Shown here: positions 1,375 to 49,548 of the stretch, in pieces
How the letters are laid out: every line of letters begins with the position of its first letter
How positions within the stretch are numbered: the stretch's first letter is position 1
From: Candidatus Gottesmanbacteria bacterium
GTDB taxonomy: Bacteria; Patescibacteriota; Microgenomatia; UBA10105; UBA927
Reading direction: 5' to 3'
Length of the DNA stretch: 64,000 bases
Assembly (NCBI GenBank): GCA_030679255.1
Contig: JAUXTO010000019.1
Span: forward strand, 1,699 to 65,698
Made by a program: the position numbers and the translations under genes
Notes under the pieces: generated by a model
What the model saw: the letters and a program-made list of their open reading frames with translations, nothing else
Databases searched by the model: none
Told to the model about the DNA's origin: nothing

Positions 1375-1375
1375 A

Positions 1376-9900: not shown

Positions 9901-10226
9901 TTTGTTACTTTTTTGGGCGCTTCATGCCCCTGTAATTCCCCAGCGATTATGTCCTACGGCATTCCCCAGCGAAAATGTCCTATACTCTTCGTCATCCCGG
10001 ACAAGCGAAGCGCGATCCGGGATCCATTTATACAGTTAAAAACGTTTAATTGACTTCTACAAAGGCGCAATATGGATTCCCGCTTTCGCGGGAATGACAA
10101 ACATATCAATTCAAGTCTAGCCATACAACAGGACAAAATCCCTGGGTAATGAACAGGACATTATTGCTGGGGAATGACAGGCGCTTCATGCCCCTTGACA
10201 CCGATACCCTGGCCATTTCATACTGA

Positions 10227-26451: not shown

Positions 26452-26561
26452 GTCATCCCCGCGCTCCTTGTTGTCATTCCCGCCCGCCGCGACGGGTAAA
26501 CTCCGGCGGGAATCCATTCCTCATTTTAACACTGGATCCTCGGGTCAAGCCCGAGGATGAC
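26452..26561. repeat. MITE-C, a bipartite hairpin element (GTCATYCC...GGRATGAC). It provides the C-terminus and stop codon of the 26474 gene.
   Basis: gtcattcccgcc..ggcgggaatcc .. ggatcctcgggtcaagcccgaggatgac. Confidence 0.7.
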
Positions 26562-27781
26562 AATAATGAAATGAGCAGTTCTACCCCACTCCCCGCCCAA
26601 AGGCTCAAAATAGGGTAATAGACGAGCGTGTGGCGACTTTCGTTGGAGAGGAGTGGGAAGAGGAACGTAATGTAACAAAACAAGAGTGTTGAAAAAAGAA
26701 AAACAGGTTCGCCCAAAACCTTCTTACCTTTCCCCCCTACCTGCCGGAGTATCCCCACGAACCACATCCCGATCAGGGTTATATTCAGGATCCGCATGGG
26801 CCACTGATCCCACGGATAAAATTTATCAACATACGTATAGATATGATCCTTATCCCACAGCCACACGACGTTCATGGCAATATTGGAAAGGAACGTGGGC
26901 CACTCCCCCGGCAGACGCGCGAGAAGCATGCCTTTATATTTTTCCGAATGCGCGGCTTTGCCTTCGAGCGGCGTGTTCCAATAGCTCTGGACAACCTGCC
27001 CGTACTCGGGAATCTCGCCTTTAAACTCGACCTCCGGATACTTCCACCGGAAAAAGTTGAGGTAGATGATTTCATACTTGAGGTTATACGGCGGGACGAG
27101 CGAGACTTTGCCGAACGTTTTATAATTGACGATCAGCGAATAGGACGAGGCGAGGAGAAAACCGGCAAGCAAAAACGCCAATAATTTCCCTCCCCGAAAT
27201 ACCCCAAATTCCCTCAAAGCCCCAAATCCCAGTATTCCAAAAAAGACAAACAGGAAGTAGTAAAACGAATGGCGGGTAAAAAGAAGAAGCCCGGCCGTCA
27301 GCCCAAAGCCAAGCCAAAGGAACGCGTGCGTCCGAAGCGCCGGCCGCGAAAGGATATACACGAAAAGTGATACAAGGAAGATACTCACGGTTTCGGCTAG
27401 AGCTAGGCCGGTAAACGCGGCAACAAAGGGATTAAAGAGGTAGATAATAAATGAGAATAACGCTGCCTTCTGATTGAATAGTTTTTTGGCAGTTTCATAA
27501 AGAAGGATGGCGGAAGTGAGATCAATGACGATGTGGACCAATCGGACGGCAGTAAGATTTTCAATTCCAAAAAAGTTGTAGATGACCGCCAAAAACGCTC
27601 CGTAGCCCATATTTTTGGCACAGCAGTCGATGGGCCATTTCCCTAGAAGAAATTGAATAGCAAAATCCGAATAGCCTTTGCTGTCAAAAACTATCGTATT
27701 GTAAGCGTTAAACGCGAGGATCAGGCGGAATACCAATCCCCCCAGAAAAAGCCAAATCAATAATTTAGTCTGTTTCGTCAT
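26474..27781 (-). CDS. ArnT/PMT-like GT-C membrane glycosyltransferase
   Basis: Polytopic; N-terminal loop motif similar to the other ArnT-like paralogs. Confidence 0.5.
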   Translation of the reverse strand: MTKQTKLLIWLFLGGLVFRLILAFNAYNTIVFDSKGYSDFAIQFLLGKWPIDCCAKNMGYGAFLAVIYNFFGIENLTAVRLVHIVIDLTSAILLYETAKKLFNQKAALFSFIIYLFNPFVAAFTGLALAETVSIFLVSLFVYILSRPALRTHAFLWLGFGLTAGLLLFTRHSFYYFLFVFFGILGFGALREFGVFRGGKLLAFLLAGFLLASSYSLIVNYKTFGKVSLVPPYNLKYEIIYLNFFRWKYPEVEFKGEIPEYGQVVQSYWNTPLEGKAAHSEKYKGMLLARLPGEWPTFLSNIAMNVVWLWDKDHIYTYVDKFYPWDQWPMRILNITLIGMWFVGILRQVGGKGKKVLGEPVFLFSTLLFCYITFLFPLLSNESRHTLVYYPILSLWAGSGVELLISLLSSSGLTRGSSVKMRNGFPPEFTRRGGRE

Positions 27782-27784
27782 GTA

Positions 27785-28321
27785 TTATTTACTATAGACG
27801 ATGTTCGTCCTGCCATACACCCACCAAAAGAAATGAAGCATCAGAGCCGGTACAAGAAAAAATGTAAACGGCTTACGGCTTACGTATACCTCGCCCATTC
27901 GCTCAATATCCCCTGACGCCACAAACCGCGCGAGGCGCTTGTCGACGATCTTCATATGATTATAGTGTGTAAGAAGCGTTCTTCGTGATACGCCCGCGCG
28001 TCCCGCCCGGACGACCTCGCCCAACACCCGCATCCTGATTGATGACTCCATGACGCCAAAAATCCCCATAAAATAATTGCCCGTGAGAAGGGTCGAAAGC
28101 AGGAATGACGCTGCCACAATGCCCAACGTCGGGACGGCACCCATACCACGCATACTACTCACGATGCCCAGGAATACATGGGCCGCCATACTCACAAAAA
28201 CGTACGTCATCCAAAAGACCGGGATCACCGACCGGTCAGAAATCTGCCGGAGAACCAGGACGTGAAGGGCCAAAAAAATCAGAAACGTCCCCACTGATCC
28301 CGCAAGAATAAAGATATCCAT
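27785..28321 (-). CDS. Membrane protein with a C-terminal winged-helix-like domain; paralog of 28325..28828
   Basis: VSRRTLLTHYNHMKIVDKRLARFV versus ITREEILTHFSDAETVVNRVNTLLYEKFL. Confidence 0.4.
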   Translation of the reverse strand: MDIFILAGSVGTFLIFLALHVLVLRQISDRSVIPVFWMTYVFVSMAAHVFLGIVSSMRGMGAVPTLGIVAASFLLSTLLTGNYFMGIFGVMESSIRMRVLGEVVRAGRAGVSRRTLLTHYNHMKIVDKRLARFVASGDIERMGEVYVSRKPFTFFLVPALMLHFFWWVYGRTNIVYSK

Positions 28322-28324
28322 AGA

Positions 28325-28828
28325 TTACCCTCCCCGCTCCCATTTCATGAGCCGTCGGTACCAGGTCATGAATCGTGCGATGGGGATTGCTTTAGGAGCT
28401 GCATGCAACCGGTTACCGCCCTCTACGAGGAATTTCTCATAGAGAAGGGTATTCACGCGGTTGACGACCGTTTCCGCATCAGAAAAATGCGTGAGAATTT
28501 CCTCCCGCGTGATCGGACCATGGCGCCGGACAAGAAACAATACCTTCATCGAGGGACTCCGTGCGTCAAAAAAGAAACTCATGAAAAACAAAAAATGCGC
28601 GCCGGAAAAAAGAAGAAAGAGAAATAGAGCGCTCATTGGTAGAGTTCCGGGTATCTTGAAATAAAGTAGCCAACCAATGACCATGGCGCTTGGAATAAAA
28701 ATAAGAAAACTATTCTTCGTCAGCTTTCCAAATCCCAACGCGAGGGCACGGTGAAGAATAACATGAATCAAAGCAGTCAGGAGATACCAGCCCAAACTCA
28801 CAAAAAATTGCACCATAGAAATCCTCAC
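28325..28828 (-). CDS. Membrane protein, paralog of 27785..28321
   Basis: As above. Confidence 0.4.
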   Translation of the reverse strand: MRISMVQFFVSLGWYLLTALIHVILHRALALGFGKLTKNSFLIFIPSAMVIGWLLYFKIPGTLPMSALFLFLLFSGAHFLFFMSFFFDARSPSMKVLFLVRRHGPITREEILTHFSDAETVVNRVNTLLYEKFLVEGGNRLHAAPKAIPIARFMTWYRRLMKWERGG

Positions 28829-29535
28829 TGTTTTCTCAATGTTCCGGTTATATCTTCTGATACGAGGTCAACGAGAATTTTCGCGGTATGATAGATCGTT
28901 TTCCACCGGAATACCGACGCGACCCCGCTCCTTCGCGGTTCAAACAAAAATGGAATCTCGAGTAGGGTTGCTCCTCGGCCAATAAGGCGGATCCGGAGTT
29001 CTGCAAGAAACGTATTCCCATCGCTCGCCAGCCCCGCTTGTTTTACGAGCGACGTTTTACACATAAACGGCCCGGTATAGTAGCGCAGATCGAGGTGAAA
29101 CAAGAGGTTGCAGACCGTCACAAACAGATGGGAAATTATTCTCCGGTCAATCGTGCGCATGAGGGGGTTGGCCATATAGGCCGAGATAAAATCGGCTTTA
29201 TTGCGGGCTTTGATCAAATCTTCAAGCGATTCTTTTTTCATCTCGTTGTCGCTTGGAAACAGGGTCGTGTAGTCAAAGGAGGCTCGTGCCAGTCCCAAAC
29301 GGAAGGCGTGTCCGAATCCCATATTTTGTGGGGATTGGATGACCTGCACATGAGGAGATTTTTTGGCTATCTTCTGGGCGGCTGCCCCTGTATCATCGCT
29401 ACTGCCATCATTGATAATGATAATTTCGTACGGAATGCGCAATTTTTTGCAAACATCCGATACAGAAGAGACCGCGCGATCCAGATTGCCGGCTTCGTTA
29501 TACGCGGGCATGATGATACTTATTCCGGCTTTCAT
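28825..29535 (-). CDS. GT2 polyprenyl-phosphate sugar synthase-like
   Basis: ISIIMPAYNEAGNL...IIIINDGSSDDT. Confidence 0.65.
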   Translation of the reverse strand: MKAGISIIMPAYNEAGNLDRAVSSVSDVCKKLRIPYEIIIINDGSSDDTGAAAQKIAKKSPHVQVIQSPQNMGFGHAFRLGLARASFDYTTLFPSDNEMKKESLEDLIKARNKADFISAYMANPLMRTIDRRIISHLFVTVCNLLFHLDLRYYTGPFMCKTSLVKQAGLASDGNTFLAELRIRLIGRGATLLEIPFLFEPRRSGVASVFRWKTIYHTAKILVDLVSEDITGTLRKQ

Positions 29536-30662
29536 ACCTTGGTATAAAATTTTTGGATCACGGAGACGATCTGCCCCACATCACGGCCCGTCATATATTG
29601 GTGGCACGGGAGGGTGAGGATCGTATCGGCCTGCCGCTCGCACACCGGGAAATCTCCCTTTTTGTATCCGAGATACCGTGCGGCTTTCTGCAAATGAATC
29701 GGGGTGGGATATTGGATAACCGCCTCTATGCCTTGTTTGGCAAGATACGTGATCAATGCGTCCCGACGTTTGGCCATCACGACATAATTGGTGTACGTGT
29801 GAACAATAGGAGCTGTACACAAATTTCTGTCGGGTACATGCACATGCCCAGCTAACGGCTTGAGGAGCCGATCGTAGAGGACGGCAAGCGACCGGCGCTT
29901 TTTGACGACACCGGGCATCTGGGGCAGGAGAACGGAGGCAATCGCGGCGTGAATGGTGTCCAGCCTGCTGTTATGGGCAAAAAATTCAACTTCGTTTCTC
30001 GTCTTTAACCCGTGGTTACGCCAAAGTTTGAGCTTGGTGGCGAGTGTCGCGTCATTGGTCGTAATCATGCCGCCGTCCCCCCAGACGTGGAGAATCTTCA
30101 TAGGATGGAAACTGTAGGCCCCCGCCGTCCCAATGGTCCCCAAATATTTGCTGCCGTAGCGAGCGAGAAATGCCTGCGCCACATCTTCAACGACTGCCAG
30201 ATGGTGGCGCTTGGCGATAGCCATAATGGGCTTCATGTCCGCCGGTTGTCCCGTAAGATGGACGGGAATAATGGCTTTTGTTTTTTTCGTGATTACTTTT
30301 TGGATACATGCTGGATCGATAGTGTAGTCATCCCGCACATCAGCAAACACCGGACGGGCGCCGGTCAGGGCGATAGCCGCCGCTGTCGCGACAAAACTAT
30401 TTGGGGCGGTGATGACCTCGTCTCCTACCCCGATGCCAAGGGCTTTGAGAATAAGATACAACGCATCCGTACCGTTGCCAACCCCGATGACATGTTTGAC
30501 GCCCAGTATTTTGGCAGCCTGCGCTTCAAAAACAGCAACCTCTTTTCCTAAGGTAAAATCCCCGCGCCGGGCAACGGCTTCAATTTTTTTAAGATACGTG
30601 CCCGGCCGTTCGAACTGTTTTTTGAGATACGCGTAGGGCAATGTCCATGCTGGTGATTTCAT
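29532..30662 (-). CDS. DegT/DnrJ/EryC1/StrS-family PLP-dependent sugar aminotransferase
   Basis: GVGNGTDALYLILKALGIGVGDEVITAPNSFVATA. Confidence 0.75.
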   Translation of the reverse strand: MKSPAWTLPYAYLKKQFERPGTYLKKIEAVARRGDFTLGKEVAVFEAQAAKILGVKHVIGVGNGTDALYLILKALGIGVGDEVITAPNSFVATAAAIALTGARPVFADVRDDYTIDPACIQKVITKKTKAIIPVHLTGQPADMKPIMAIAKRHHLAVVEDVAQAFLARYGSKYLGTIGTAGAYSFHPMKILHVWGDGGMITTNDATLATKLKLWRNHGLKTRNEVEFFAHNSRLDTIHAAIASVLLPQMPGVVKKRRSLAVLYDRLLKPLAGHVHVPDRNLCTAPIVHTYTNYVVMAKRRDALITYLAKQGIEAVIQYPTPIHLQKAARYLGYKKGDFPVCERQADTILTLPCHQYMTGRDVGQIVSVIQKFYTKV

Positions 30663-30709
30663 ACGATATCGCCTACTCTAGCACGGGAAAGAATTTTGTG
30701 CAATGAAGA

Positions 30710-31786
30710 TTAAAATGGGCCGGTGAAGGTAGGGTCGGGCTGGTCGGGGGAAAATCCGGGTACCTCGGTGATTGCCGCGGCGTATTCCTTTACGATGCGA
30801 GCAACAACTGTCTGCTTCCTCCCGCACAACACAAGCGCGCTTCGCAGGATATCGATGCCCGTGGGGTAATACGATCCAGCCAGTGCCGGGCTCGTAGGGG
30901 TGGGCATATCCGGGAGCGCAATACGCACCGGCGGCATAGCAAAATGAACCCCGGCCTCGGCAACCATTGCCACGATCTCCGCTCCGATGCCAAAGGATTT
31001 CCAGCCGGTATCAGCGACGATCAGACGGTGGGTTTTTTGCACTGATTTGACGATGGTGTTGCGGTCTAGCGGTCGGATAGACCGCAGGTCAACCACTTCC
31101 GCGGCAATCCCCTCTTGAAGGAGTGCCTCGGCAGCTCTCATCGCTTCAATCGTCATGTACGACGCGGCGACAATCGTCACATCCCTCCCAGCTTTAGCAA
31201 CCCGCGCGTTCCCGATCGGGACTTCGTAATATCCTTTCGGCACATCTCCCGTCAGGGCGTGGAGCCAGCGGTGTTCAATGAAGATAACTGGATTGTTATC
31301 GCCAATGGCAGACAGTAACAAGCCCTTCGCATCAGCGGGGACAGCAGGCATGACCACTTTTAAACCTGGAATATGAGCAAAAAGAGCCTGTAAACTTTGT
31401 GAGTGCTGCGGCCCCGGCCCCCATCCCCTCCCCACGACCATACGGATCACAAGAGGAACGCTTTGCTTTTGGCCGAACATAAAGTACCACTTTGCCGCAG
31501 TATTGACGATGGCGTCAAAAGACATAAGCGTAAAGTCCATGCGCGCGTGGACCATAATCGGGCGCATGCCGGAAATAGCGGCCCCCACACAGATGCCAGT
31601 CATCCCGTTTTCGGCAACGGGCATATCCATGACCCGGCCGGGAAATTTTTGTGCGAGTCCAATGGTCGTCCCGAATATACCCTTCGCGTCCGGCACGCCC
31701 TCGCCGATGACAAACACGGACGGGTCGCGGGTAAGGGCGATTTCCTGGGCCTCGTTTATCGCCTGGGCGTAGGTTACGGTTCTCAT
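30710..31786 (-). CDS. TPP-dependent 2-oxoacid dehydrogenase E1 beta-like subunit (transketolase-like)
   Basis: VFVIGEGV....GRVMDMPVAENGMTGICVGAAISGMRP. Confidence 0.65.
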   Translation of the reverse strand: MRTVTYAQAINEAQEIALTRDPSVFVIGEGVPDAKGIFGTTIGLAQKFPGRVMDMPVAENGMTGICVGAAISGMRPIMVHARMDFTLMSFDAIVNTAAKWYFMFGQKQSVPLVIRMVVGRGWGPGPQHSQSLQALFAHIPGLKVVMPAVPADAKGLLLSAIGDNNPVIFIEHRWLHALTGDVPKGYYEVPIGNARVAKAGRDVTIVAASYMTIEAMRAAEALLQEGIAAEVVDLRSIRPLDRNTIVKSVQKTHRLIVADTGWKSFGIGAEIVAMVAEAGVHFAMPPVRIALPDMPTPTSPALAGSYYPTGIDILRSALVLCGRKQTVVARIVKEYAAAITEVPGFSPDQPDPTFTGPF

Positions 31787-32739: not shown

Positions 32740-32751
32740 AGATCACCTATA

Positions 32752-33747: not shown

Positions 33748-33770
33748 AGGATAAAGAATTGTGTCATCCT

Positions 33771-34868: not shown

Positions 34869-34909
34869 GGCACGCGAGGGGCAAGATTCAAGAGTGTCTC
34901 AAAAAACTA

Positions 34910-35329: not shown

Positions 35330-35359
35330 AAAGAGTTTACTAAATACTATCCTGCCCGA

Positions 35360-35839: not shown

Positions 35840-35896
35840 TCGTCTTCATGTGTTCGTCTTCATTTCGACAAAATACGACCAATAATCCAAAAAGTT

Positions 35897-35925
35897 AGCT
35901 TCGCAAGGCCAGGCCTTGCGAAGCT
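35897..35925. repeat. REP-A palindrome (centre A), 26 nt upstream of the RAYT gene
   Basis: agcttcgcaaggccaggccttgcgaagct. Confidence 0.9.
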
Positions 35926-35950
35926 AGAAATTCTATGATAGGTTGATGGT

Positions 35951-36667
35951 ATGCCAGCAAAAAATCGAACCAAACAATATGAGGAAGACGCCCGGTACCA
36001 TCTCTACAACCGAGGCGTGGATAAGCAAAAAATTTTTCGGGATCGTCAGGATCATAGTGTATTTCTCTCCTACCTCAAAACGTATTTAGAACCCAAGGAT
36101 GAAATCACTCTTCGGGCGACCATTATGGATGAAACTGCTTCCTGGAGGGCAAAAGGCCAAGCGATAAAGTTGCTTAGGCTAAATAATTTCTATGACAATC
36201 TCACCCTGCTTTCCTATTGTCTTATGCCCAATCATTTTCATTTTCTCGTGCATCAAAGAGATGAGGATGGCATAGACCGATTCGTCAATTCCCTGGGTAC
36301 ACGCTACACGATGTATTTCAACAAAAAATACAAACGCGTTGGTCCATTGTTTCAAGGAGTCTATAAAGCAGTACTTGTAAAAACCGATGACCAGCTTCTC
36401 TACCTCTCGAGATACATTCACCGAAACCCACTCGGATTAGATAAATCGAAAATATTAGCTTCGCAAGGCCTGGCCTTGCGAAGCTGGGAGTATAGTTCGT
36501 ATAAGGAATATTTGGCATTACGACAGACCAAATGGGTGAATCGAAAGGAAATACTCACTCAATTCGGAAAAAAAGGAACGACATCATATCAGTCGTTCGT
36601 TGAGGGATTTGATGAAAATGAAAACGCAGCCTATATTCTCCATGATACAGCTATCGACGTTGATTGA
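35951..36667 (+). CDS. IS200-like Y1/HUH transposase of the REP-associated (RAYT, COG1943) type
   Basis: YHLYNRGVDKQKIF; LLSYCLMPNHFHFLV (HuH); GPLFQGVYKAVLV; YLSRYIHRNPL (catalytic Tyr region); WEYSSY. One REP-A copy is inserted in-frame (ILASQGLALRS). Confidence 0.8.
   Translation: MPAKNRTKQYEEDARYHLYNRGVDKQKIFRDRQDHSVFLSYLKTYLEPKDEITLRATIMDETASWRAKGQAIKLLRLNNFYDNLTLLSYCLMPNHFHFLVHQRDEDGIDRFVNSLGTRYTMYFNKKYKRVGPLFQGVYKAVLVKTDDQLLYLSRYIHRNPLGLDKSKILASQGLALRSWEYSSYKEYLALRQTKWVNRKEILTQFGKKGTTSYQSFVEGFDENENAAYILHDTAIDVD
36457..36485. repeat. REP-A palindrome inside the RAYT coding sequence
   Basis: Exact palindrome. Confidence 0.9.
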
Positions 36668-36685
36668 CGTAATATTAGAAAAAAG

Positions 36686-38920
36686 CTAAATAGCTAGCTT
36701 CGCAAGGCCTGGCCTTGCGAAGCTAAAGATAATGACAAGTATGGTCAATATGCTTATTGCGGCGCCCCAAAGGACGATCGTTGGGCGGTAGGAAAAGACG
36801 ATCGTGTGGGTGCCCTTCGGGAGATAGAGCGTCCGGAAGGCGGCGTTGCTTTCAAAAATCGGAGTGCTTTTGCCGTCAACCGTTGCCTTCCATCCCGGAT
36901 ACATAACTTCGCTTGTGGCAAGAAACGCGTTACAGGGAGTAGCCGCGGTCAGTGATATTTTTCCATATCCGTAGGAATTGACAGTGACCGTTCCTTTAGT
37001 GTCCGCCGGACAATCCGGATTGAATCCCGATACATCCACTCGAGTCCCGTCCACGATGATTGTCGTTTTCGGGTCCACGCTCCCACGTTTGATTGCTGAT
37101 AATACCGCTTCCCTATTAGGTTCTTTTTGCATCTTCGTTGCGATAAAAAAGCGAGGGCTTACATTTTTATTTTCATACAACCTCCATCCGCGATTCTTAT
37201 TTTCTCTCACTAACTCAAATTGTTTCGTTGAAATATGTTTGATGGCATCACTCGCTATCGGCACGAGAATGTATTTAATGTTGAGATAATTTAAGTACGG
37301 TGATGTGATAGCACGAAACGGCGGGGTGGACTCGCTGTAGGAAAGCACGTCGGTAAATTTGTACCCGTTGGCGGCAAGGAGAAATTCGTACATATTGCGA
37401 AGTGGTGGCGTATCGTAACCGGATACGGACTGAATTTTATGCGCAATCGGCGCGTTAAACTCGAGGACGTCCCGCAGGGGATCGCCGTGATAAAAATTCG
37501 GGAGAAAACGATAGAGACTTTTGTCATTGATAAACGCGGAAACTAATGCGGTATCCTCGCTTTTTTCCGGAATGGGAACCAATGAAAGGTGGCGGCGGGC
37601 AAACGGAACGAGATCAAGGAGGAGTAAACCTACAACAATCACCTGCAATATTTTTGATTTGACCATGCTCAATCCAATTCCAAATAATACACTTGCCGAC
37701 AGCACAAAAAGCACGATGTGCCGAGCCGGAATACGGATTTGGCTGTAGAGAGGCATCCACGAACGAACCCAAGAAAAAAGATCGAGGGGCGCGTTCTGCC
37801 CCAACCACATCCATATCCCAAAAATACCGACGAGGACAAACGCCGGAATTTCCCACGATGTTTTCTTTTTCACGACCCACGAGGCGACCGCTAGAAGTGC
37901 AAAGAGAAGCGATACTTTTCCAAAGTACCCCACGTGCTCAAATCCGAAGCCCGAGTCCGGCAGACGCGAGTAAAAATAAAATGGATCTATAAATTCAAGC
38001 AGGTGTCCGACTGTCGGCGTCCCAAGTTGGGCCCAACTATCCGGAAACGAAAACGTCCGGATGCTATGGGCTATGAATTGGGCGTTGGGGAGAAGTTGGA
38101 TTACTGCCAGACCAAATCCGATTAATATTGCAGCTCCGACACGAACCATTGGTTGGAAAATAATAGATAGGTTAAGAGTTGTCATCCCCGTGCCTGTAGG
38201 GGATCCAGTTTTTACTCTGGATTCCCGCGTACGCGGGAATGACTGAAAAATATTATAGCATTGATAAATCAACATCATGATAAACACTCCTTCCAGCGTA
38301 AACACTGCAACCATCGGATGACCAGCCAATAGCTGTATGGCCAACGCCACCCCGGCAAACGCGATGTTTTTTCTGCTGATAGCTGATAGCTGACCCGCTT
38401 CGCCAAAACAGCGAGGCGAGCAGCTGAAAGCTAAAATCACCCACGGCATCCACGCCGATGCAGCAATGATATCGATGTGTCCGGCTGGAATGCGGGCCAC
38501 AAAGTACGCGGACAATCCGAAGGCGACTCCCGCCCCCCACGCGGCAATTTTTGACATTTGACCTTTGATATTTGACATTGCGCGAAGCGCGCAGTACATC
38601 CCGGACATCGCGATAAACAGATGCAGGGCAATGTACCAGGAAATAGCAGCATTGGTGGGCAACAATACAAATAAAATATTCGGGAGATACCAAAAGGGAA
38701 TTTGCGGATGCTCAAGATATGGCTGACCGCCGAAAATGTACGGATTCCACCACGGAATAGTTCCCAGTTTAAGCGACTCCCCCAAAAACTGCCGCTGCCA
38801 ATAATGGTACCGCCAGATATCCGGTCCAAATAATATTTTTCCCTCCGGTGGCCATAGAACTCCCCAAAACACCACGAGAACAAGGATGGCATAGGCCAAA
38901 AATGGAAAAAACTTTTTCAT
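36686..38920 (-). CDS. YfhO-family membrane glycosyltransferase, paralog A
   Basis: WWNPYIFGGQPY...SAWMPWV...C-terminal YPGWKATVDGK..AFR..LPKGTHTIVFSYRP. Carries in-frame MITE-C, Elem-F, an SSR and a terminal REP. Confidence 0.7.
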   Translation of the reverse strand: MKKFFPFLAYAILVLVVFWGVLWPPEGKILFGPDIWRYHYWQRQFLGESLKLGTIPWWNPYIFGGQPYLEHPQIPFWYLPNILFVLLPTNAAISWYIALHLFIAMSGMYCALRAMSNIKGQMSKIAAWGAGVAFGLSAYFVARIPAGHIDIIAASAWMPWVILAFSCSPRCFGEAGQLSAISRKNIAFAGVALAIQLLAGHPMVAVFTLEGVFIMMLIYQCYNIFQSFPRTRESRVKTGSPTGTGMTTLNLSIIFQPMVRVGAAILIGFGLAVIQLLPNAQFIAHSIRTFSFPDSWAQLGTPTVGHLLEFIDPFYFYSRLPDSGFGFEHVGYFGKVSLLFALLAVASWVVKKKTSWEIPAFVLVGIFGIWMWLGQNAPLDLFSWVRSWMPLYSQIRIPARHIVLFVLSASVLFGIGLSMVKSKILQVIVVGLLLLDLVPFARRHLSLVPIPEKSEDTALVSAFINDKSLYRFLPNFYHGDPLRDVLEFNAPIAHKIQSVSGYDTPPLRNMYEFLLAANGYKFTDVLSYSESTPPFRAITSPYLNYLNIKYILVPIASDAIKHISTKQFELVRENKNRGWRLYENKNVSPRFFIATKMQKEPNREAVLSAIKRGSVDPKTTIIVDGTRVDVSGFNPDCPADTKGTVTVNSYGYGKISLTAATPCNAFLATSEVMYPGWKATVDGKSTPIFESNAAFRTLYLPKGTHTIVFSYRPTIVLWGAAISILTILVIIFSFARPGLAKLAI
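36696..36724. repeat. REP-A palindrome forming the 3' end (FARPGLAKLAI-stop) of YfhO paralog A
   Basis: Exact palindrome. Confidence 0.9.
38181..38243. repeat. MITE-C element in-frame within YfhO A (adds SFPRTRESRVKTGSPTGTGMTT)
   Basis: gtcatccccgtgcctgtaggggatcc agtttttactct ggattcccgcgtacgcgggaatgac. Confidence 0.75.
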
Positions 38921-40026: not shown

Positions 40027-42296
40027 ACCCGCTTTTTCATCCAAATCAAACAGCCAAGAAGGGTCATGAGACTCACAAAGATTCCCATGATAAATACCGT
40101 TGGCCGGTAAACCATGACCATGGTGTGTTTCCCTTTGGGAATGACGACCGTCCGGAACGCAAGGTTGCCTTCAATGAGTTTCGCCGGTTTCCCGTCAATG
40201 GTAGCCTGCCAGCCCGGATACATCACCTCACTGGTTGCGAGCATGGCGTTACACGGCGTATCGGTCTTCAAAATTATTTTGTTCATGGAATAGGACGCGA
40301 CCGTAACCGGCGGGAGCGGTTGACTACCGCAATTGAACGCAACATCAGAGGGAACATCCTTTTGTTGCACTAAAACGACTTTTCCCGGATCATGCTCCCC
40401 TGCCCGGATGGCACGGGCAATGGACGGGCGATCAGGGAGTCCAACAATCTGTGAAGCAAGAAAAAATCTGGGTAACACGGTGGTGTTTTCATACAGACGG
40501 AAATAATCTTTTTTGTTTTCCTCCATAACTAATTTATACTTCGGCGAAGATCCGGCAACCGAGTCAAACCAGGACGGGACAAAAATATATTTGACGTTGA
40601 GAAAATCCACATACCGCGAAGACGGTTTTAAATACGGAATCTGTACATCAGTTTGCTGGACGTCCGGGTTTTCGACCCCTGCAACGGCGGCCCCAAATTC
40701 ATAGTAGTTGCGCAGGATAGCCGGGTCATACCCCGATGCACTGTAGAGCCGATAACCCATCGCAGCGTCAAAATCCAGGGCATCGCGCGTCCCCATGCCG
40801 ACGTTAAAGTTGGGAAGAATCCGCGCCATCCCCAAATTCTTTTGAAGGTAGCTCACTAATTCTTGATTATGCCGCGTCGCCGGATCGGGCCGCAGGACAA
40901 CAAAGTTTTTTGCAAACCAGAGCATATCAACAGTGATAAACAATGAAATTATGAAAACAGCTAGCTTCGCAAGGCCAGGCCTTGCGAAGCTAAGATTCTT
41001 CAAATAATTCAAGCCGATGCCGGCGAGGGCGCTCATGCCGAAGACAAAGAGAATAAGATGGCGGGAAGGGATTCGGAGATATTTATATATTGGAACGGTG
41101 TCCCAGAGAATTTTATTGAGGTCGATGGGCGCGTTCCAGCCGAGGGAAACCCACAGGCCGAAGATTGCAATACACACCATTGCACCGCCAAATACTAATA
41201 CTTGGCGGTCGTGAGTGAACAATTTCGTGACGGGGTTACTTCGTTTAATAATCATTTGAAGGACATGAATGACGAATGCAATGATAGAAATCAATGCAAG
41301 CAATAGTCCCCCCTTGCCCATATATGCCGCCATTTCGCCGAAATTGGGACTTGGACCTTTATAACTCCATGGGAATCCGAGGACAAACGGATCAATAAGT
41401 TGCTTGAGATTGCCGATCGTATACGATCCAAACACTGCCCATGAGTAGGGCAATGGATAGGTCCGGATGCTTGCGCGAAAAAATTCCTGACCGGGAAGAA
41501 TCTGGATAGCTGATAAGCCAAGCCCGATAATTACCGAGAGTCCTGCATATAAAAAAGGTTTCACACTTCTTGCATTGATGCATTGACCCACGGACACCAT
41601 GCCGACGGCAATGACGGTCATCATCGCCATCGTCTGATACCCCGCCAAAATCTGCATGGCAAATACTATCCCGGCAATAACGCAATTTGTTTTCCATTTG
41701 ACATTTGACTTTTGACATTTGACATTTGCCCATACCACCCACGGCATCCAGGAGGCCGAAAGGATAAGCTCTATATGCCCTTCCCAAATCCGCCCCATAA
41801 AAAAGCCGGAAAGGCCAAAGACTAATCCTGCGATCCAGGGACCAATAGGATGGAGGACATAAGACATAGGACGTAGGATAGAACTGTTTTTGATTCCATT
41901 GGAAATTGGTAATTGGTCATTGGTCATTACACTTCTGATCAGGATGTACATCCCCAGCATCGCCCAAAAGATGTGCAGCGGAATGATCCATGAGTAGACG
42001 AAGCGGTATGGCATCAGGGCAAAGAGCCAATTGACGGGATACCAAAATGCGAGCGACGGGTTAGCGATCAACGGCTCGCCGGAAAACAGGTACGGATTCC
42101 ACCACGGAAACTCCCCACGGGCAAGAGCGTCACCAAATAATTGCCGGAAAAAATGATACGACCGATGGATGTCATCGCCAAATACGAGCGTCCCCGGCGC
42201 AGGCCACAGGATAGGCCAAAAAACAAAGAGCACGATGGCGAGATAAAAAATGGCAGCGACAATGTACGGATTTTTCAGTACTCTCACGATTCTCAT
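40023..42296 (-). CDS. YfhO-family membrane glycosyltransferase, paralog B
   Basis: WWNPYLFSGEP; SASWMPWVV; C-terminal YPGWQATIDGK. Contains in-frame REP-A and SSR tracts. Confidence 0.7.
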   Translation of the reverse strand: MRIVRVLKNPYIVAAIFYLAIVLFVFWPILWPAPGTLVFGDDIHRSYHFFRQLFGDALARGEFPWWNPYLFSGEPLIANPSLAFWYPVNWLFALMPYRFVYSWIIPLHIFWAMLGMYILIRSVMTNDQLPISNGIKNSSILRPMSYVLHPIGPWIAGLVFGLSGFFMGRIWEGHIELILSASWMPWVVWANVKCQKSNVKWKTNCVIAGIVFAMQILAGYQTMAMMTVIAVGMVSVGQCINARSVKPFLYAGLSVIIGLGLSAIQILPGQEFFRASIRTYPLPYSWAVFGSYTIGNLKQLIDPFVLGFPWSYKGPSPNFGEMAAYMGKGGLLLALISIIAFVIHVLQMIIKRSNPVTKLFTHDRQVLVFGGAMVCIAIFGLWVSLGWNAPIDLNKILWDTVPIYKYLRIPSRHLILFVFGMSALAGIGLNYLKNLSFARPGLAKLAVFIISLFITVDMLWFAKNFVVLRPDPATRHNQELVSYLQKNLGMARILPNFNVGMGTRDALDFDAAMGYRLYSASGYDPAILRNYYEFGAAVAGVENPDVQQTDVQIPYLKPSSRYVDFLNVKYIFVPSWFDSVAGSSPKYKLVMEENKKDYFRLYENTTVLPRFFLASQIVGLPDRPSIARAIRAGEHDPGKVVLVQQKDVPSDVAFNCGSQPLPPVTVASYSMNKIILKTDTPCNAMLATSEVMYPGWQATIDGKPAKLIEGNLAFRTVVIPKGKHTMVMVYRPTVFIMGIFVSLMTLLGCLIWMKKRV
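40963..40991. repeat. REP-A palindrome in-frame in YfhO B (SFARPGLAKL)
   Basis: agcttcgcaaggccaggccttgcgaagct. Confidence 0.9.
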
Positions 42297-42381
42297 TGTA
42301 TCGCCCAGTTCTCCTTTTGCAACAGAGAATGAACAACGCGCGAGATCTTGCTATTGTCAATAGAAACAAAACGCTCTATTC

Positions 42382-43916: not shown

Positions 43917-44637
43917 TGGGGATGGCCGCGCCCGTGATATAGCCGGCTTGGGGGCTTGCCAGATAGACGGCGAGACTGGCAATTTCTTCCGGCTGGGCTT
44001 TGCGTCCCAGCGGAATTTGTTTGATCATTGTTTCCATATAAGAAGTTGGAACGTCTTTAAGAATTTCTGTATCGACAAGTCCCGGGCAAATGGCATTGAC
44101 GGTAATGCCAAAGCGCGCCACTTCTTTGGCTAACGACTTTGTAAATCCAATAAGGGCCGCTTTGGACGCACTATAGTTCGTTTGCCCGAAATCTCCCCGC
44201 TGCCCGCTTATAGAAGAAAGGAAAATAATCCTCCCCCACCCGGAGGCAATCATGCCGGGAAGTAATTGTTTGGTGACAAAGAATGCACCATACACATTGG
44301 TTTTCATGACGATATCCCAATCCTCTCCACTCATCTTGGTAAATAAAACATTACGGACGATCCCCGCGTTGTTGACGAGAATATCGATATGACCGAATTG
44401 GGAAATAACTTTTGCGCATCCGCGGGCCACTGCGTTGGGATCGGTGATGTCAAAATACACCGCGTTGCTTTTGGGTGATAAACGTTTTATCTGCCTAAGG
44501 ACATCCTTGCTCTCCGGCGACGGATGTGATGCATGGGTGACAACGATATTCCCCTCCCGAGCAAATCCCAACGCTATCGCCCGCCCAATGCCACGGGACG
44601 AGCCGGTGACGAACACAATTTTTTCTTTTGTTTTCAT
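43897..44637 (-). CDS. SDR-family oxidoreductase (FabG-like)
   Basis: IVFVTGSSRGIGRAIA...NNAG...YSASKAA. Confidence 0.7.
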   Translation of the reverse strand: MKTKEKIVFVTGSSRGIGRAIALGFAREGNIVVTHASHPSPESKDVLRQIKRLSPKSNAVYFDITDPNAVARGCAKVISQFGHIDILVNNAGIVRNVLFTKMSGEDWDIVMKTNVYGAFFVTKQLLPGMIASGWGRIIFLSSISGQRGDFGQTNYSASKAALIGFTKSLAKEVARFGITVNAICPGLVDTEILKDVPTSYMETMIKQIPLGRKAQPEEIASLAVYLASPQAGYITGAAIPINGGWM

Positions 44638-46775
44638 AGAGAGGTGCGGATATCATAAGACTTCTTCCATAAAAATACCATGATACCCGCGGTAATGAAC
44701 GAGATGACTCCCCCGATGACGAAAATCCTGGGATTGTACCGATAGATGACGGTGTGGTTTCCTGCGGGGACAAAAAGTGCTCGGAATGCATTGTTTGCCT
44801 TGATTATCTCTACCTTTTGTTCATCGATAAATCCTTCCCATCCGGGGTAATATACTTCGGAACTCATGAGTGTTGCCCCAGTGGTGGACTGGGTTGACAG
44901 GATGATTTCGTTGGGTGAATATTTTACGATATTCACCTTCCCCTCTTTATGATCGGCAAAATAGAACCTTGGGAAGACCGTGGTATTTTCATACAATCTA
45001 TAATCACGAGCCACATCTTCGCGGATGAGACGGAATCTCGGGTCTTTCGTACCAAAAAGTGGATCGTACGCGCGCGGGTGGAGAATATATTTGATGTTGA
45101 GGAAATCCGTGGCTTTGGAAAATATATTCAAGTACGGAATCTGCACATCATGATCGAGAATACTCGGCGTCGTCTTGCCATTGGACGCATCAATAAATGC
45201 ATAATACGGTTTTAGTATCATCGTGTCGTAGCCGGTCGCATTAAAAACACCGTACTGCATCCCCGCGTCGAAATCAAAACTATCCCGGGGTGGTGCCCAC
45301 GCGCCGAAGTTAGTAAGAACTCTATACGGATCGCGGTTTTGTTTAAGAATCTTAATAAGGTCAACGTCGTGGCGCGTCTCGGGAACGGGCTTGAGGGTGA
45401 TGAAGTGATGGGAGTAAAAAATCATTTCCGCCGCGATGAGTACTCCCGCGATTCTCACAATGTGCTGAGAGCGGATTGCGTGAATGGACATCCCAATAAG
45501 TCCGCTGAGCCCAAAGGCAACGAGGATGAGATGGCGCGGAGGAATACGAAGGAATTTATACGTGGGGACAAGCTTCCAGAGGATATATTGCAAGTCAATG
45601 GGGGCGTTGGGACCCATGGATACCCAGAGACCAAAGAAGGCGATACAACCGAACGCGAGTATCATAGGTGACTTAGGTATCTTAAGTACCCTCGGTAACC
45701 GAAACAATAAAACTGCCAGAACAACGAGCAACCCCACTCGTCCCACAAAAAACGCATGTTCGGCAAAATTGGGTGGCGGGCCGCTATAGGTGAGTTGATC
45801 CCCAAAGAAAAATGGGTTAAAAAATTGCCCTAAACTCCTCCACTCAAACGATCCGTATGCAATCCAGGAATACGGAAGAGCGTATGTCCTTATGGTTTGA
45901 CGAAAAAACTCCTGTTGAGGGAGAAGGACCACCGCAAAAAGTCCGATAGCCAGAAGCACGCTCAAGGCGATACTCGCAATGACGATCACTATCCTCTTCA
46001 TACTTGCCCGTTGAGAAATAAACGTGATCGCTGCCATGATCCCCACTGCCTCGAGCGTCAACATAGCCATCGTCTGATACCCGGCAAACAACTGCATGGC
46101 CAAGACTACCGCAGCGATAACAATCCTCCGCCGCTCCTGGTATTTTTGTGTGTATTCTTCCAGTTTTGAATTTTTAGTTTTGAGTTTTGAGATTGCGCCA
46201 AAGGCGCATACCACCCACGGCATCCACGAGGCCGCAGCAATCACATCCACATGCCCGGCCCAGATGCGGGCGGCAAAGAAGCCGGAGAGACCGAAAACGA
46301 GACCGGCGATCCACGGACCAATAGGATGGAGGACATAGGACATAGGACATAAGATAGAGAAATTGCTCTTTTCATTGGATAATTTGATTATTGGATTATT
46401 GGATAATTCCCTGCGAAGCAGGGTATACATCCCCGTCATCGCCCACAGGAGGTGTAGGGCGATATGCCACGAATACGCAATATTGAGGGGCAAAAGTACG
46501 AAAAGCCAATTCGGTGGATACAACATGTTGACGATCGGATGGGCTATAAACGGAGTCCCTGCGAAGTTGTAGGGATTCCACCACGGCCAGACGCCTTGAG
46601 CCAAAAAGTTGTTGAAAAATTGCCGGTAAAAATAATACGCCCGGTGGATATCGTCGCCCCAGATCATCTCCGTGGCTCCAGGAATGAGCGCGCGGCCAAA
46701 CACCACCGCGACCGCCAGCGCGTAGAACGCGATCGGCACACCATACGGCCACACCCTACGGAAAAACGATCTCAT
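44634..46775 (-). CDS. YfhO-family membrane glycosyltransferase, paralog C. Start trimmed to an ATG overlapping the methyltransferase stop.
   Basis: WWNPYNFAGTPF; AASWMPWVV; C-terminal YPGWEGFIDEQ..AFRALFVPAGNHTVIYRY. Confidence 0.65.
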   Translation of the reverse strand: MRSFFRRVWPYGVPIAFYALAVAVVFGRALIPGATEMIWGDDIHRAYYFYRQFFNNFLAQGVWPWWNPYNFAGTPFIAHPIVNMLYPPNWLFVLLPLNIAYSWHIALHLLWAMTGMYTLLRRELSNNPIIKLSNEKSNFSILCPMSYVLHPIGPWIAGLVFGLSGFFAARIWAGHVDVIAAASWMPWVVCAFGAISKLKTKNSKLEEYTQKYQERRRIVIAAVVLAMQLFAGYQTMAMLTLEAVGIMAAITFISQRASMKRIVIVIASIALSVLLAIGLFAVVLLPQQEFFRQTIRTYALPYSWIAYGSFEWRSLGQFFNPFFFGDQLTYSGPPPNFAEHAFFVGRVGLLVVLAVLLFRLPRVLKIPKSPMILAFGCIAFFGLWVSMGPNAPIDLQYILWKLVPTYKFLRIPPRHLILVAFGLSGLIGMSIHAIRSQHIVRIAGVLIAAEMIFYSHHFITLKPVPETRHDVDLIKILKQNRDPYRVLTNFGAWAPPRDSFDFDAGMQYGVFNATGYDTMILKPYYAFIDASNGKTTPSILDHDVQIPYLNIFSKATDFLNIKYILHPRAYDPLFGTKDPRFRLIREDVARDYRLYENTTVFPRFYFADHKEGKVNIVKYSPNEIILSTQSTTGATLMSSEVYYPGWEGFIDEQKVEIIKANNAFRALFVPAGNHTVIYRYNPRIFVIGGVISFITAGIMVFLWKKSYDIRTSL

Positions 46776-47527
46776 ACGCCTACCTTCGTCGCGTACACCA
46801 CGAGGGTTGCGCCTCTCGGGAACGGACACCAAAGAAAAAACAACTGTTCCAACCGTAACAAATAATACAACATAGCATTGACCAAAGGATGTGGGACACG
46901 CAAATACATGGGGACGACCGGGACAGACGTCTGGCGCTTGGTGTACATCCTGAAAAGGATATACCACGGCAGGGAAAACACGTTCCAATAATTCATATAG
47001 TGCACATGAAATCCGGCAGTACGGAGTTTTTCCCTGAGCTCACCCGGCTCATATCTCCTCTTATGCCCGCCAATGTCATCCAGACTACTCCAAAGCCACT
47101 TCCCTGCTGGTACGGTCAAGAGAAACGTACCGTCTTTTTCCAACATGTCCCAACACCGTCGTAAAAATAAACGGTCGCGCGTTTGATGTTCAAGGACATC
47201 AAATGCCCCGACCCCGCTAAATTTTTGTTTGCTCTGAAATGTATAGAGGGACTGACGGACAAACCGGGCAGCAGGACAACTGTTTTTTGCATAGGTGAGC
47301 GCTGCCTCATTGACATCCAAGCCCACGACACGATATCCCAGATTGTCTAACACGCGCAGCATGATGCCGGTCCCACATCCTACTTCAAGGAATGACCGGC
47401 GATCATTTTTTGGAATGAACCGTTCAATAAGTCCAGCAAGCATGGAGCCACGCGCACGGAACCAGAAATGCTCGTTCTCGACTTGGGCTACCTCCCTATA
47501 GTGCGATATATGATACGTTGCGGACAT
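46772..47527 (-). CDS. Class I SAM-dependent methyltransferase
   Basis: FLEVGCGTGIMLRVL...VVGLDVNE. Confidence 0.65.
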   Translation of the reverse strand: MSATYHISHYREVAQVENEHFWFRARGSMLAGLIERFIPKNDRRSFLEVGCGTGIMLRVLDNLGYRVVGLDVNEAALTYAKNSCPAARFVRQSLYTFQSKQKFSGVGAFDVLEHQTRDRLFLRRCWDMLEKDGTFLLTVPAGKWLWSSLDDIGGHKRRYEPGELREKLRTAGFHVHYMNYWNVFSLPWYILFRMYTKRQTSVPVVPMYLRVPHPLVNAMLYYLLRLEQLFFLWCPFPRGATLVVYATKVGV

Positions 47528-47541
47528 AATCCAAGAGCTGG

Positions 47542-49548
47542 TTATAGCGATCGGTATACCGTCACAAAGGAATTCTTATACACCTCTGTGAGGAACGGAT
47601 AGATTTTGACAAGACCCCCTACTCCCCTTGCCTCGCCGCCCCGCTTCGCCGAATCGAGGCGAGCAGGCGGGCCATCCTCTTTCTCCTGCGGACCGAAAAA
47701 TATCCAATGAAGATTTTCGCGGGTCATCCATGCTTTGGCGTCATCCGGTTTCATCCGGCCGGAAAAAAACTCTTTGACTTTTACTTCTTTTGCTTCAGCG
47801 TCGACCGTGTTGGCGTGCCCCACATAGACCGTATTGCCGGCATAGACCGGGATATAGTTGCCCGCGGTCGTCTCAGAAAGAATAATTGTTTTGCGGCTGG
47901 GCGTCGCGTCCTGGATATAACGGATAGCGGCAATGAAATCTTTCAGCGGATACATGACGTAGCTCCCCGTCGGCACGAGCGGGTAAGTCGCCCGCATCTT
48001 GTGATCGATGAAGTCCTTTTGCCAGAGGAATGAGGAAGACATCACCCCGAAACCCACACCTATCAATATCGTAATCAATATACACACCATTAAGCGCAGC
48101 ATACTCCTGAGGAAAATTCCAAATGATCCAAACATTTGGTATTTGGTGCTTGATGCTTGGTGCTTGTTTGGTATTTGGTGCTTGATGCTTGGTGCTTGTT
48201 GATAATTCCAATGAAATGCAAACCAACAGAGATACGCCGTCAGGACCCCCAGCGGGACGTGCGGGATCATTTCGCTAAAGCGAAGGGGCGACTGGGCCGG
48301 GATAAATTTGAAAATAAAAAGGAGAAGCGCCCACGCGAGGACCCAAGCCGCGGCAGGCCACATCCTGCGGTCTCTCATTTTTAGCGCGACCAGAAGTCCG
48401 ATGATCCCCAAGGGAAGAATGGGCCCGACTGCCTTCAAGTATTCGATGTAATCAAACGGCAGGGGCTTCACGATGTCAAACTCGACGAGCCGCTTCCATG
48501 GATAAAACGAGGTCATGAGGGAGAGATAGATGAGAGAAGGAAGACCCAAAATCAAGACTACCACCCTTCCTGTCATCCTCGGGCTTGACCCGAGGATCCA
48601 GTTTCTTAAAAGCGAGATTCCAGCTCGGAGGCCGGAACGACAAAAATATGCCCAGCTTCGCAAGGCCTGGCCTTGCGAAGCTAACAATTTTAGATTATAT
48701 GATAGTTCAAGGCATGTTAGGGCGCCAATGGTGACAATAATAAACAATAAGCCCGGAGGGAATATGATGCCTTCGGCGAATGCGATCACTCCGAGAAATA
48801 CCCAATTGCCCGGCTTTTTCATGGTCGCCTCATCGGAGAGGGCCATAATCAAAAATATAATCAGTGCTTGCCCCACGAGAAGATGCGGGATGAAGGTGAT
48901 GCGCTGCAGACTGTCCATGACGGACCACCACGGCATGTAGCCGCCGAAACGCCAGTTGGTGATATTGGCAATCGTTGCGGGGACGACTTGATTGTTAATG
49001 ACAGCAACAATCTTGGGCCAGGTGGAGGCGGTGACAGCAAGGAGAAAGGCAAGAATCGGGACGTAGGACGTAGGATCTAGGACGTAGGGAAAAAATGCAA
49101 GACGTTCCGATTTATTCTTATGTCCTATGTCATCACTCATACGTCCTTGTTCAAACGTTTTCTTACAAAACTGGACGATCATGACGAGGAGAAATCCTCC
49201 GAAGACGATGCGCGCGACGTGGTAGACGTCCGAAGCCCGATGCCAGGGCACACGAACCCACGCCCCAAGCCACCCCAGGAAAAGATAAAAAATGTGGATG
49301 AATGATCCCTGATGCGGCTCGCTCGTGTATTGCTCGCGGACCACGACATTTCCCTCTATCCCCTGCCGGATACGGGAGAGATAAAAATTAAAGTCCGTCG
49401 GAAAATTATGGATGAGTTCGAATTCACGGTTAGATTGCAGACGGTTGCTATGGGCAATCTCATACGCCGCCGGGGCGAGGGAGCCAAGAAGAAACAAAAT
49501 AATAAGGAAACCAAATACTTTATCTCTCATGTCCCCCATTCTACGCAA
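47542..49548 (-). CDS. Polytopic membrane protein, family X paralog 3. Contains REP-A, MITE-C, Elem-F and tandem-repeat insertions in-frame.
   Basis: HNFPTDFNFYLSRIRQGIEGN..TSEP motif. Inserted peptides LLASQGQALRSW, RSGLRAGISLLRNWILGSSPRMTG. Confidence 0.45.
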   Translation of the reverse strand: MRRMGDMRDKVFGFLIILFLLGSLAPAAYEIAHSNRLQSNREFELIHNFPTDFNFYLSRIRQGIEGNVVVREQYTSEPHQGSFIHIFYLFLGWLGAWVRVPWHRASDVYHVARIVFGGFLLVMIVQFCKKTFEQGRMSDDIGHKNKSERLAFFPYVLDPTSYVPILAFLLAVTASTWPKIVAVINNQVVPATIANITNWRFGGYMPWWSVMDSLQRITFIPHLLVGQALIIFLIMALSDEATMKKPGNWVFLGVIAFAEGIIFPPGLLFIIVTIGALTCLELSYNLKLLASQGQALRSWAYFCRSGLRAGISLLRNWILGSSPRMTGRVVVLILGLPSLIYLSLMTSFYPWKRLVEFDIVKPLPFDYIEYLKAVGPILPLGIIGLLVALKMRDRRMWPAAAWVLAWALLLFIFKFIPAQSPLRFSEMIPHVPLGVLTAYLCWFAFHWNYQQAPSIKHQIPNKHQASSTKYQMFGSFGIFLRSMLRLMVCILITILIGVGFGVMSSSFLWQKDFIDHKMRATYPLVPTGSYVMYPLKDFIAAIRYIQDATPSRKTIILSETTAGNYIPVYAGNTVYVGHANTVDAEAKEVKVKEFFSGRMKPDDAKAWMTRENLHWIFFGPQEKEDGPPARLDSAKRGGEARGVGGLVKIYPFLTEVYKNSFVTVYRSL
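48572..48638. repeat. MITE-C element (second hairpin degenerate) in-frame
   Basis: gtcatcctcgggcttgacccgaggatcc agtttcttaaaagcgag attccagctcggagg. Confidence 0.65.
48654..48682. repeat. REP-A palindrome in-frame
   Basis: Exact palindrome. Confidence 0.9.

Follow-up and report, generated by a model that had tools for sequence, protein, structure and literature searches.

Short two-hairpin elements with the ends GTCATYCC...GGRATGAC lie within and between the genes of a 64 kb stretch of a Candidatus Gottesmanbacteria contig (Candidate Phyla Radiation, CPR; Patescibacteria), and the question raised by this stretch, hereafter the window, is to which class of repeat they belong. Our analysis indicated, with a probability that we place at roughly three in four, that these bipartite elements are head-to-head (HH) dimers of CGTC/TGTC-tagged repetitive extragenic palindrome (REP) hairpins and represent a non-autonomous derivative of the element that carries the nuclease gene ssn. 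An earlier sequence-only reading, which likened the elements to miniature inverted-repeat transposable elements (MITEs), had listed three copies within the span 26452-48638 and one outside that span, and all four were present: 9989-10100 (doublet B), 26471-26563 (C), 38179-38245 (A) and 48570-48643 (D).

Hairpins of this kind have been described from two directions. The Neisseria Transformation Sequence (NTS), CGTCATTCCCGCGMAVGCGGGAATCYRG, is a superset of the dRS3 repeat and was defined alongside a degenerate 'Ssn-related motif' (SRM) (Chenal et al. 2025, Nat Commun 16:2388, PMC11893778). The CGTC-tagged REPs, families CGTC-1 to -4, were defined by Di Nocera, De Gregorio and Rocco (2013, BMC Genomics 14:522, PMC3733652), who equated them with Neisseria dRS3 and Rickettsia conorii RPE-4/-6; their CGTC tag is often changed to TGTC, their 8-9 bp stems begin with A-T residues, their loops measure 4-5 nt with other lengths in some species, and they end in CCA tails. 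These units occur mostly as HH dimers, with heterodimers common, the intragenic dimers encode 20-30 amino acids, dimer termini can supply stop codons, and no dedicated transposase was found for them (PMC3733652). The SRM search pattern matched the window four times, against a mean of 0.3 expected from 200 first-order Markov simulations, while two window units stood only 2 mismatches each from the NTS consensus (0.00 expected); the exact pattern of the second of the two hairpins also occurred twice against 0.00 expected.

Comparison DNA comprised 493 kb from ~20 related Patescibacteria metagenome-assembled genomes (MAGs), the closest relatives being 75-83% identical, and another 664 kb from metagenome contigs in which a separate palindrome, REP-A, is also found, which together gave 1.16 Mb and with the window 1.22 Mb. 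A covariance model, as the sequence-only reading had proposed, was built from 33 short-loop units of the window and its relatives, all selected for at least 8 perfect pairs, and was scanned across the whole window with filters off. It returned seven units with E from 5e-10 to 2e-5 plus two weak ones, the E-values being rough owing to a shortened calibration, and recovered all four doublets together with a unit that had previously been missed, 59882-59934(-) (Table 1). All nine units known from the source genome come from these 64 kb.

The consensus of the 33 aligned units was TGTCATCCCCGCG.A.GCGGGGATCCAGT, in which G3, T4, C5 and A6 were invariant and the base before GTC was mostly T or C. Each unit is composed of an unpaired T/C-GTC tag, a stem of 8 or 9 bp (A-T, T-A, then Y-C-C), a loop and an unpaired CCAG tail, with CCAG or CCAT at the 3' end in ~90% of the units (3 of 33 differed). 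The pairs A6-T28 and T7-A27 were conserved, the stem variants ATTCCCGC, ATCCCCGC, ATCCCGGC, ATTCCGGC, ATCCTCGGG, ATCCCAGC and ACCCCCGC were all paired, and five of the seven scored stem pairs had changed on both sides. Loops were of 4 nt (GNAN) or 5 nt (CTTGA), some having grown to 9-45 nt via nested small hairpins; four of the nine window units had 4- or 5-nt loops and the rest had loops of 9-30 nt with nested hairpins. The single stem consensus earlier given for the first hairpin did not hold, as the stems read CCCC, CCCGGA or CCTCGGG, and a fixed-spacing search for this hairpin found no match because loop lengths vary. Part of the linker reported as AGTTT belongs to the conserved CCAG tail.

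Two smaller repeats accompany these units. The half-unit head (GTCATYCCCGC) was found repeated 9-13 nt upstream of a full unit, at times several in tandem, in the window (26452-26472), at L003 1558, in L170 and L173, and in many viral contigs including L010, L011, L019, L022 and L055; such duplication in unrelated lineages suggests a mechanistic footprint. A 24-nt small hairpin repeat, GCTCGCCTCGCTGAGTCGAAGCGG, occurs both free-standing and nested in unit loops (L002 10673-10746; L137, L141 and L181; window 9324-9359, 14079-14114, 16337 and 25580), and in L002 it is tandemly triplicated, encoding LASLSRSG x3 in YfhO.

Pairing of the units followed a uniform plan. Across the window and the 493 kb, 32 of the 59 model-matched units formed 16 doublets and 27 were single. 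Every doublet had its tags facing outward and its CCAG tails facing each other across a short A/T-rich linker (6-12 nt in 15 doublets; 42 nt, unusually long, in doublet B), and all 16 combined an ATCC/ACCC-type unit with an ATTCC-type unit. Neighbouring strict units no more than 80 nt apart were arranged +/- in 15 cases and -/+ in none. When folded as single-stranded DNA (ssDNA), the doublets formed two hairpins closed by tag-tag and tail-tail pairing, with z = -3.5 to -4.1 against shuffles for three of the four window doublets. The related 493 kb contained 50 further units, and ~73 strict units were counted in the window plus related CPR DNA, with a density in the relatives of ~1 strict unit per 17 kb. 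The exact hairpin was also present in at least 120 viral or metagenome-derived contigs, some of which showed the same ATCC + ATTCC doublet.

Within the window, both orientations and both coding and intergenic DNA were occupied, as the sequence-only reading had stated, with doublet B intergenic and the others in open reading frames (ORFs). What had been read as one copy at 26452..26561 is a doublet whose real extent is 26471-26563, and 26452-26463 is an extra half-unit head. Its unit at 26531..26563 shares 32 identical nt with the unit at 48571-48602, and the second unit of doublet B (10071..10100) matched the SRM pattern and differed from the Neisseria NTS consensus by 2 mismatches. A degenerate copy that had been placed at ~3813-3883 gave no covariance-model match even at E<=10. 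The single unit at 59882 came from a strict hairpin scan; its covariance match, 59882-59929(-), was weak (11.9 bits, E=0.57), its nested-hairpin fold had z=-3.1, and a decayed partner possibly lies just upstream of it.

Table 1. Hairpin units and other short repeats of the window, with covariance-model scores for the units.
Feature	Position	Strand	Make-up and context	Score
Doublet B, unit 1	9989..10028	+	CGTC instead of TGTC tag; stem ATCCCGGA/TCCGGGAT; 14-nt loop; CCA tail	26.9 bits, E=2.2e-5
Doublet B, unit 2	10071..10100	-	TGTCATTCCCGC-GAAA-GCGGGAATCCAT; intergenic	42.7 bits, E=4.7e-10
Orphan half-unit head	26452..26463	+	GTCATCCCCGCG; 9 nt upstream of doublet C	
Doublet C, unit 1	26471..26518	+	stem ATTCCCGCC; 20-nt expanded loop	30.3 bits, E=2.1e-6
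Doublet C, unit 2	26531..26563	-	TGTCATCCTCGGG-CTTGA-CCCGAGGATCCAG; 9-bp stem, 5-nt loop	36.6 bits, E=3e-8
Doublet A, unit 1	38179..38209	+	stem ATCCCC/GGGGAT; 9-nt loop; inside YfhO A	29.2 bits, E=4.6e-6
Doublet A, unit 2	38216..38245	-	AGTCATTCCCGC-GTAC-GCGGGAATCCAG; inside YfhO A	41.4 bits, E=1.2e-9
Doublet D, unit 1	48570..48602	+	TGTCATCCTCGGG-CTTGA-CCCGAGGATCCAG; inside ORF 47542-49548(-); SRM pattern match	35.8 bits, E=5.1e-8
Doublet D, unit 2 (degenerate partner)	48612..48643	-	GTCGTTCCGGCC..GCTGGAATC; weak alone; position and orientation of a partner	13.8 bits, E=0.15
Single unit	59882..59934	-	stem ATCCCGGC; 30-nt loop with nested hairpin; inside ORF 58043-60592(+); strict hairpin scan	
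REP-A copies	20185-20215, 35896-35926, 36455-36485, 36695-36725, 40962-40992, 48654-48684, 63169-63198			
Heptamer/9-mer arrays	13179-13218, 38550-38589, 41697-41750, 41848-41886, 46324-46362, 48135-48198, 49059-49097, 56437-56468, 57921-57990			

Doublet B is itself nested in a larger structure (9916-10194) with a 16-nt direct repeat, GGCGCTTCATGCCCCT, at both ends and, in its interior, an inverted repeat (GTAATTCCCCAGCGATTATGTCCT ... AGGACATTATTGCTGGGGAATGAC) whose right arm begins like a unit head; extra copies of CATTCCCCAGCGAWAATGTCCT also occur in it.

The enzyme that acts on this hairpin in other bacteria is SsnA, a GIY-YIG protein of 94 aa with one domain, of the cd10448 type. It recognises the hairpin solely as ssDNA and in one orientation, cuts a few bases upstream of it, and is inactive on RNA and duplex DNA; ssn genes are typically flanked by SRM motifs (PMC11893778). 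Homologues of ssn in three other contigs (L039, L090 and L006) had a (+) unit upstream and a (-) unit downstream. At 12 ssn loci collected by protein similarity, which overlap these three in part, the nearest upstream unit was (+) in seven and the nearest downstream unit (-) in five, and three more had a head-outward doublet downstream. Locus L322 possessed only an upstream (-) unit, and its close relative L323 also has a (+) unit that has apparently decayed in L322. With ssn placed between two units whose heads point outward, the doublet resembles an ssn element that lacks its gene, and we infer that it retains the end architecture of a unit-ssn-unit element.

This can be interpreted as a mechanism in which the doublet would be a selfish, non-autonomous piece of DNA whose active form is a hairpin in ssDNA and would have arisen from an ssn element by deletion of the gene. 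As in other bacteria, Ssn would bind the hairpin and cut the strand a few bases upstream of the tag, and copies would insert without target-site duplication. Copies would survive in genes where they offer several stop-free frames and where the sites fall in interhelical loops of large membrane proteins of glycosyltransferase type, the surviving intragenic copies adding 20-30 hydrophilic residues or replacing the C-terminus. An Ssn partner and a single-strand mechanism are the predicted means by which the doublets are mobilised or serviced in this lineage. That the element is probably non-autonomous and selfish agrees with what the MITE-like label of the sequence-only reading implied.

Several results weigh against this interpretation. 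Queried by tblastn with Ssn and with YhbQ of E. coli, the window and the 493 kb of CPR DNA returned noise only, and tblastn for Ssn in the further 664 kb of metagenome contigs returned none. A profile hidden Markov model of the 12 Ssn proteins gave a best E=0.59 among 15,095 ORFs of the window and CPR DNA, and the search for ssn took in 64 kb of the source genome plus relatives. The 100% pairing of the stems is partly circular, because the units were chosen for at least 8 perfect pairs. A high-identity pair of empty and filled sites was also sought (the epimerase-E1_dh spacer; L135 versus the window) and none was clean, the flanks being too diverged to place exact insertion junctions. A regular-expression search for GIY-YIG ORFs in the window and CPR loci gave nothing credible. 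The tblastn and profile searches do find ssn in non-CPR contigs. The absence of ssn is nevertheless not decisive, because the 1.16 Mb sample amounts to about one genome-equivalent scattered over many genomes. A gene lying between head-outward units (80-3000 nt spacer) was found only once in the CPR DNA, inside YfhO, and does not represent an autonomous element.

The alternative that survives best, although we regard it as improbable, is that the doublets are REPINs, that is, REP doublets mobilised in trans by the REP-associated tyrosine transposase (RAYT) of the window, a Y1/IS200-like gene; a link to RAYTs had also been raised in the sequence-only reading. A Y1_Tnp/RAYT-like ORF is indeed present at 35951-36667(+) (E=5.6e-9), a second Y1_Tnp gene lies in L002, and the doublets resemble REPINs in having two inverted REP units (PMC3116915, PMC3337134), and also in their short spacer, the possibility of one larger fold and a non-autonomous character. 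However, the window gene belongs with the unrelated REP-A, which stands on both sides of it (35896-35926, 36695-36725) where these units do not, the gene in L002 is bordered by a further, different inverted repeat, and the tag of our units is TGTC or CGTC and not GTAG. In a survey of tagged REPs, RAYT genes were flanked by GTAG repeats or by unrelated long terminal inverted repeats (TIRs), and the CGTC REPs had no dedicated transposase (PMC3733652). Since both the tag and the flanked gene are wrong, the elements do not correspond to RAYT-type REPINs.

REP-A, a perfect 31-nt palindrome (TAGCTTCGCAAGGCCWGGCCTTGCGAAGCTA), forms a separate repeat family that is present in ~20 Patescibacteria MAGs and >120 metagenome contigs. 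Read in frame, it contributes the peptide SFARPGLAKLA to the C-terminus of YfhO A and to the interior of YfhO B, two of the YfhO paralogues of the window.

The label of a classical MITE, which would make the elements deletion derivatives of a DDE-transposase insertion sequence with TIRs and target-site duplications, is very improbable in our estimation. Small size, dispersal in both orientations and the inverted repeats at the ends would all suit such an origin, but the apparent terminal inverted repeats are the heads of two inverted REP units. Flanking direct repeats, for which the sequence-only reading had suggested looking, were found at none of the 16 doublets, and the bases that border each doublet, T at its left and A at its right, are the tag itself; because of this lack of target duplications we do not consider the doublets classical MITEs. 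Moreover, a TIR pair leaves unexplained the 27 of 59 units that are single and dispersed, and a transposase bordered by such ends was not seen anywhere in the 1.22 Mb.

Insertion of the elements into genes was evident in YfhO A, a 744-aa protein (36686-38920(-)) that matches, at 100% identity, a protein of a Candidatus Gottesmanbacteria MAG with the annotation YfhO family. It carries 22 extra in-frame residues, SFPRTRESRVKTGSPTGTGMTT, which correspond to the whole of doublet A and are placed in a loop; the sequence-only reading had counted 22 in-frame codons here, and the comparison agreed, as the insert was absent from both paralogues and from most orthologues (P0002, P0005, P0007 and others). 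In a structure model of YfhO A the insert forms a coil (227-250, pLDDT<50) between helices 202-226 and 251-284, the model being of low confidence (mean pLDDT 60.7) and used only for this coil-between-helices placement. At the DNA level this loop has no insert in L001, contains a doublet in the window and a single long-loop unit in L003, and in L002 contains a doublet of opposite orientation with other stems and with the 24-nt hairpin triplicated in one loop, which suggests that one permissive YfhO loop has been occupied repeatedly or that its occupants were re-arranged.

Doublets C and D likewise form part of proteins. The PMT_2 ORF 26474-27781(-) ends ...ISLL-SSSGLTRGSSVKMRNGFPPEFTRRGGRE*, where the last 30 residues and the TGA stop derive from doublet C, the stop being given by the head of its unit at 26471..26518, while the orthologue in L216 ends ~3 residues past the junction without the tail; the earlier claim that the element provides the C-terminal tail and stop of this ORF was thereby confirmed. 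ORF 47542-49548(-), a 668-aa membrane protein, reads in frame through doublet D (CRSGLRAGISLLRNWILGSSPRMTG) and the adjacent REP-A palindrome (48654-48684), which lies 10 nt from the doublet, in keeping with the neighbourhood noted previously, and the protein has ~26 residues more than its L001 orthologue at this position. For the fifth insertion, in ORF 58043-60592, an orthologue was sought and none was present in the fetched related DNA. Each doublet offers several stop-free frames, and different copies are read in different frames. Across the CPR DNA, 39 of 56 elements (~70%) lay inside stop-to-stop frames of at least 150 codons, compared with 78% of random 70-nt segments, a figure that overestimates true coding and includes some duplicate loci; the elements show no marked avoidance of genes.

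This distribution bears on two further explanations. The elements might regulate the host at the RNA level, as terminators, processing sites or stabilisers of mRNA, and would then not be selfish DNA, given that REPs elsewhere are often transcribed and lie downstream of genes (PMC3733652) and that compensatory changes keep the stems paired. Such a role is very improbable too when ~70% of the elements are inside long open frames, about as many as random segments, when they take both orientations relative to the host gene with no T-run after the stem, and when a scan of the window returned no Rfam family; Ssn, moreover, does not bind the RNA form (PMC11893778). Least probable of all is selection at the protein level for a recurring peptide module in membrane proteins, because, although three or four of the five elements in the window are read as protein and the same YfhO loop is occupied in three relatives, copies in different frames and orientations give unrelated peptides, intergenic copies exist (9989-10100; 13 of 56 elements), and it is the DNA palindrome and not the peptide that is conserved.

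Our preferred reading, HH dimers of tagged REPs derived from an ssn element, is best judged beside the known systems. The window units share with the CGTC-tagged REPs the tag, the 8-9 bp stem starting with A-T, the CCA tail, HH dimers, heterodimers, intragenic dimers of 20-30 aa and termini that give stops. They differ in that the host belongs to the CPR/Patescibacteria, outside the five phyla reported in PMC3733652, in that many loops are expanded by nested small hairpins, in that all 16 doublets are heterodimers, and in a share inside open frames about as high as that of random DNA. The likeness to Neisseria dRS3/NTS/SRM is close to identity in sequence (two units with 2 differences from the 28-nt NTS consensus), the GTC tag sets the orientation in both, and the SRM pattern is matched; here, in contrast, the window and 1.16 Mb of related DNA yielded no ssn, and the units are mostly paired and intragenic instead of clustered around genes. 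The main text of PMC11893778 makes no mention of Patescibacteria or of intragenic copies. Rickettsia RPE-4/-6, which are equated with CGTC-4 and CGTC-1 via PMC3733652, are also palindromic repeats inserted in frame in protein-coding genes; for the window elements such insertion was evident in YfhO A, the 668-aa membrane protein and the PMT_2 ORF against homologues without the insert. The likeness to RPE-4/-6 is one of description, and the host is a different one. The kind of repeat is known, and the novelty lies in the phylum of the host, in doublets that are uniformly heterodimers, in the inserts nested in loops and in the heavy load of copies within genes.

These findings extend to the Candidate Phyla Radiation a widespread, poorly understood class of hairpin repeat that was described in 2013 and tied in 2025 to a nuclease acting on single strands. 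CPR bacteria have small genomes, in which mobile DNA is usually thought to be scarce. In the 64 kb of the window at least three kinds of short repeat were found, namely the CGTC doublets, heptamer arrays and REP-A, the palindrome associated with the RAYT-like gene. Genes tolerate all three within them. Where CPR proteins contain peptides such as SFPRTRES, GSSPRMT or SFARPGLAKLA, annotation should treat these as inserts derived from repeats and not as conserved motifs. Because the hairpin is near-identical in Neisseria and in a CPR bacterium, its sequence argues for a strongly constrained protein-DNA recognition. Doublets as ssn-less copies of unit-ssn-unit would also support the idea that Ssn elements are, or have been, mobile, which was raised only as a hypothesis in PMC11893778.

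A more speculative proposal, which we consider unlikely, is that the Gottesmanbacteria CGTC doublets spread without Ssn by means of another enzyme, and that their recurrent in-frame insertion into the same loops of surface membrane proteins of glycosyltransferase type (YfhO, PMT_2) might generate variation among the proteins of a streamlined CPR genome. Alternatively or additionally, they might gate the recombination of incoming DNA around surface-polysaccharide genes, an idea that follows from the modulation of transformation by the same hairpin in Neisseria. Two ORFs of the window, 853-1542(-) and 2024-2719(-), possess the N-terminal methylation motif of type IV pilins and type II secretion system pseudopilins, and may be relevant in view of the effect of this hairpin class on natural transformation in Neisseria.

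The window has a G+C content of 48.8%, and its genes include three YfhO paralogues, the PMT_2-type ORF, sugar epimerases and pilin-like genes; a scan of it for tRNA genes came back empty. MAGs labelled 'uncultured Gammaproteobacteria' (loci L128-L131, L135, L139, L164, L181 and others) were syntenic with the window at 77-83% identity and contained the same repeats, and this taxonomic label looks wrong.

Two other repeat types were observed in the window. Tandem heptamer arrays (TTTGACA, TTTGGTA/CTTGGTG, GGACATA), together with one 9-mer array, were in many cases located inside YfhO-type ORFs and translated (Table 1); we take them to resemble the short tandem heptamer repeats of cyanobacteria. 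A 66-nt repeat (AAATTTCATAAGGCCACCCCTTG...) was present in two copies of 91% identity, 50004-50069 and 51889-51954, one to each side of a pair of divergent genes, 49563-51215(-) and 51263-53122(+).

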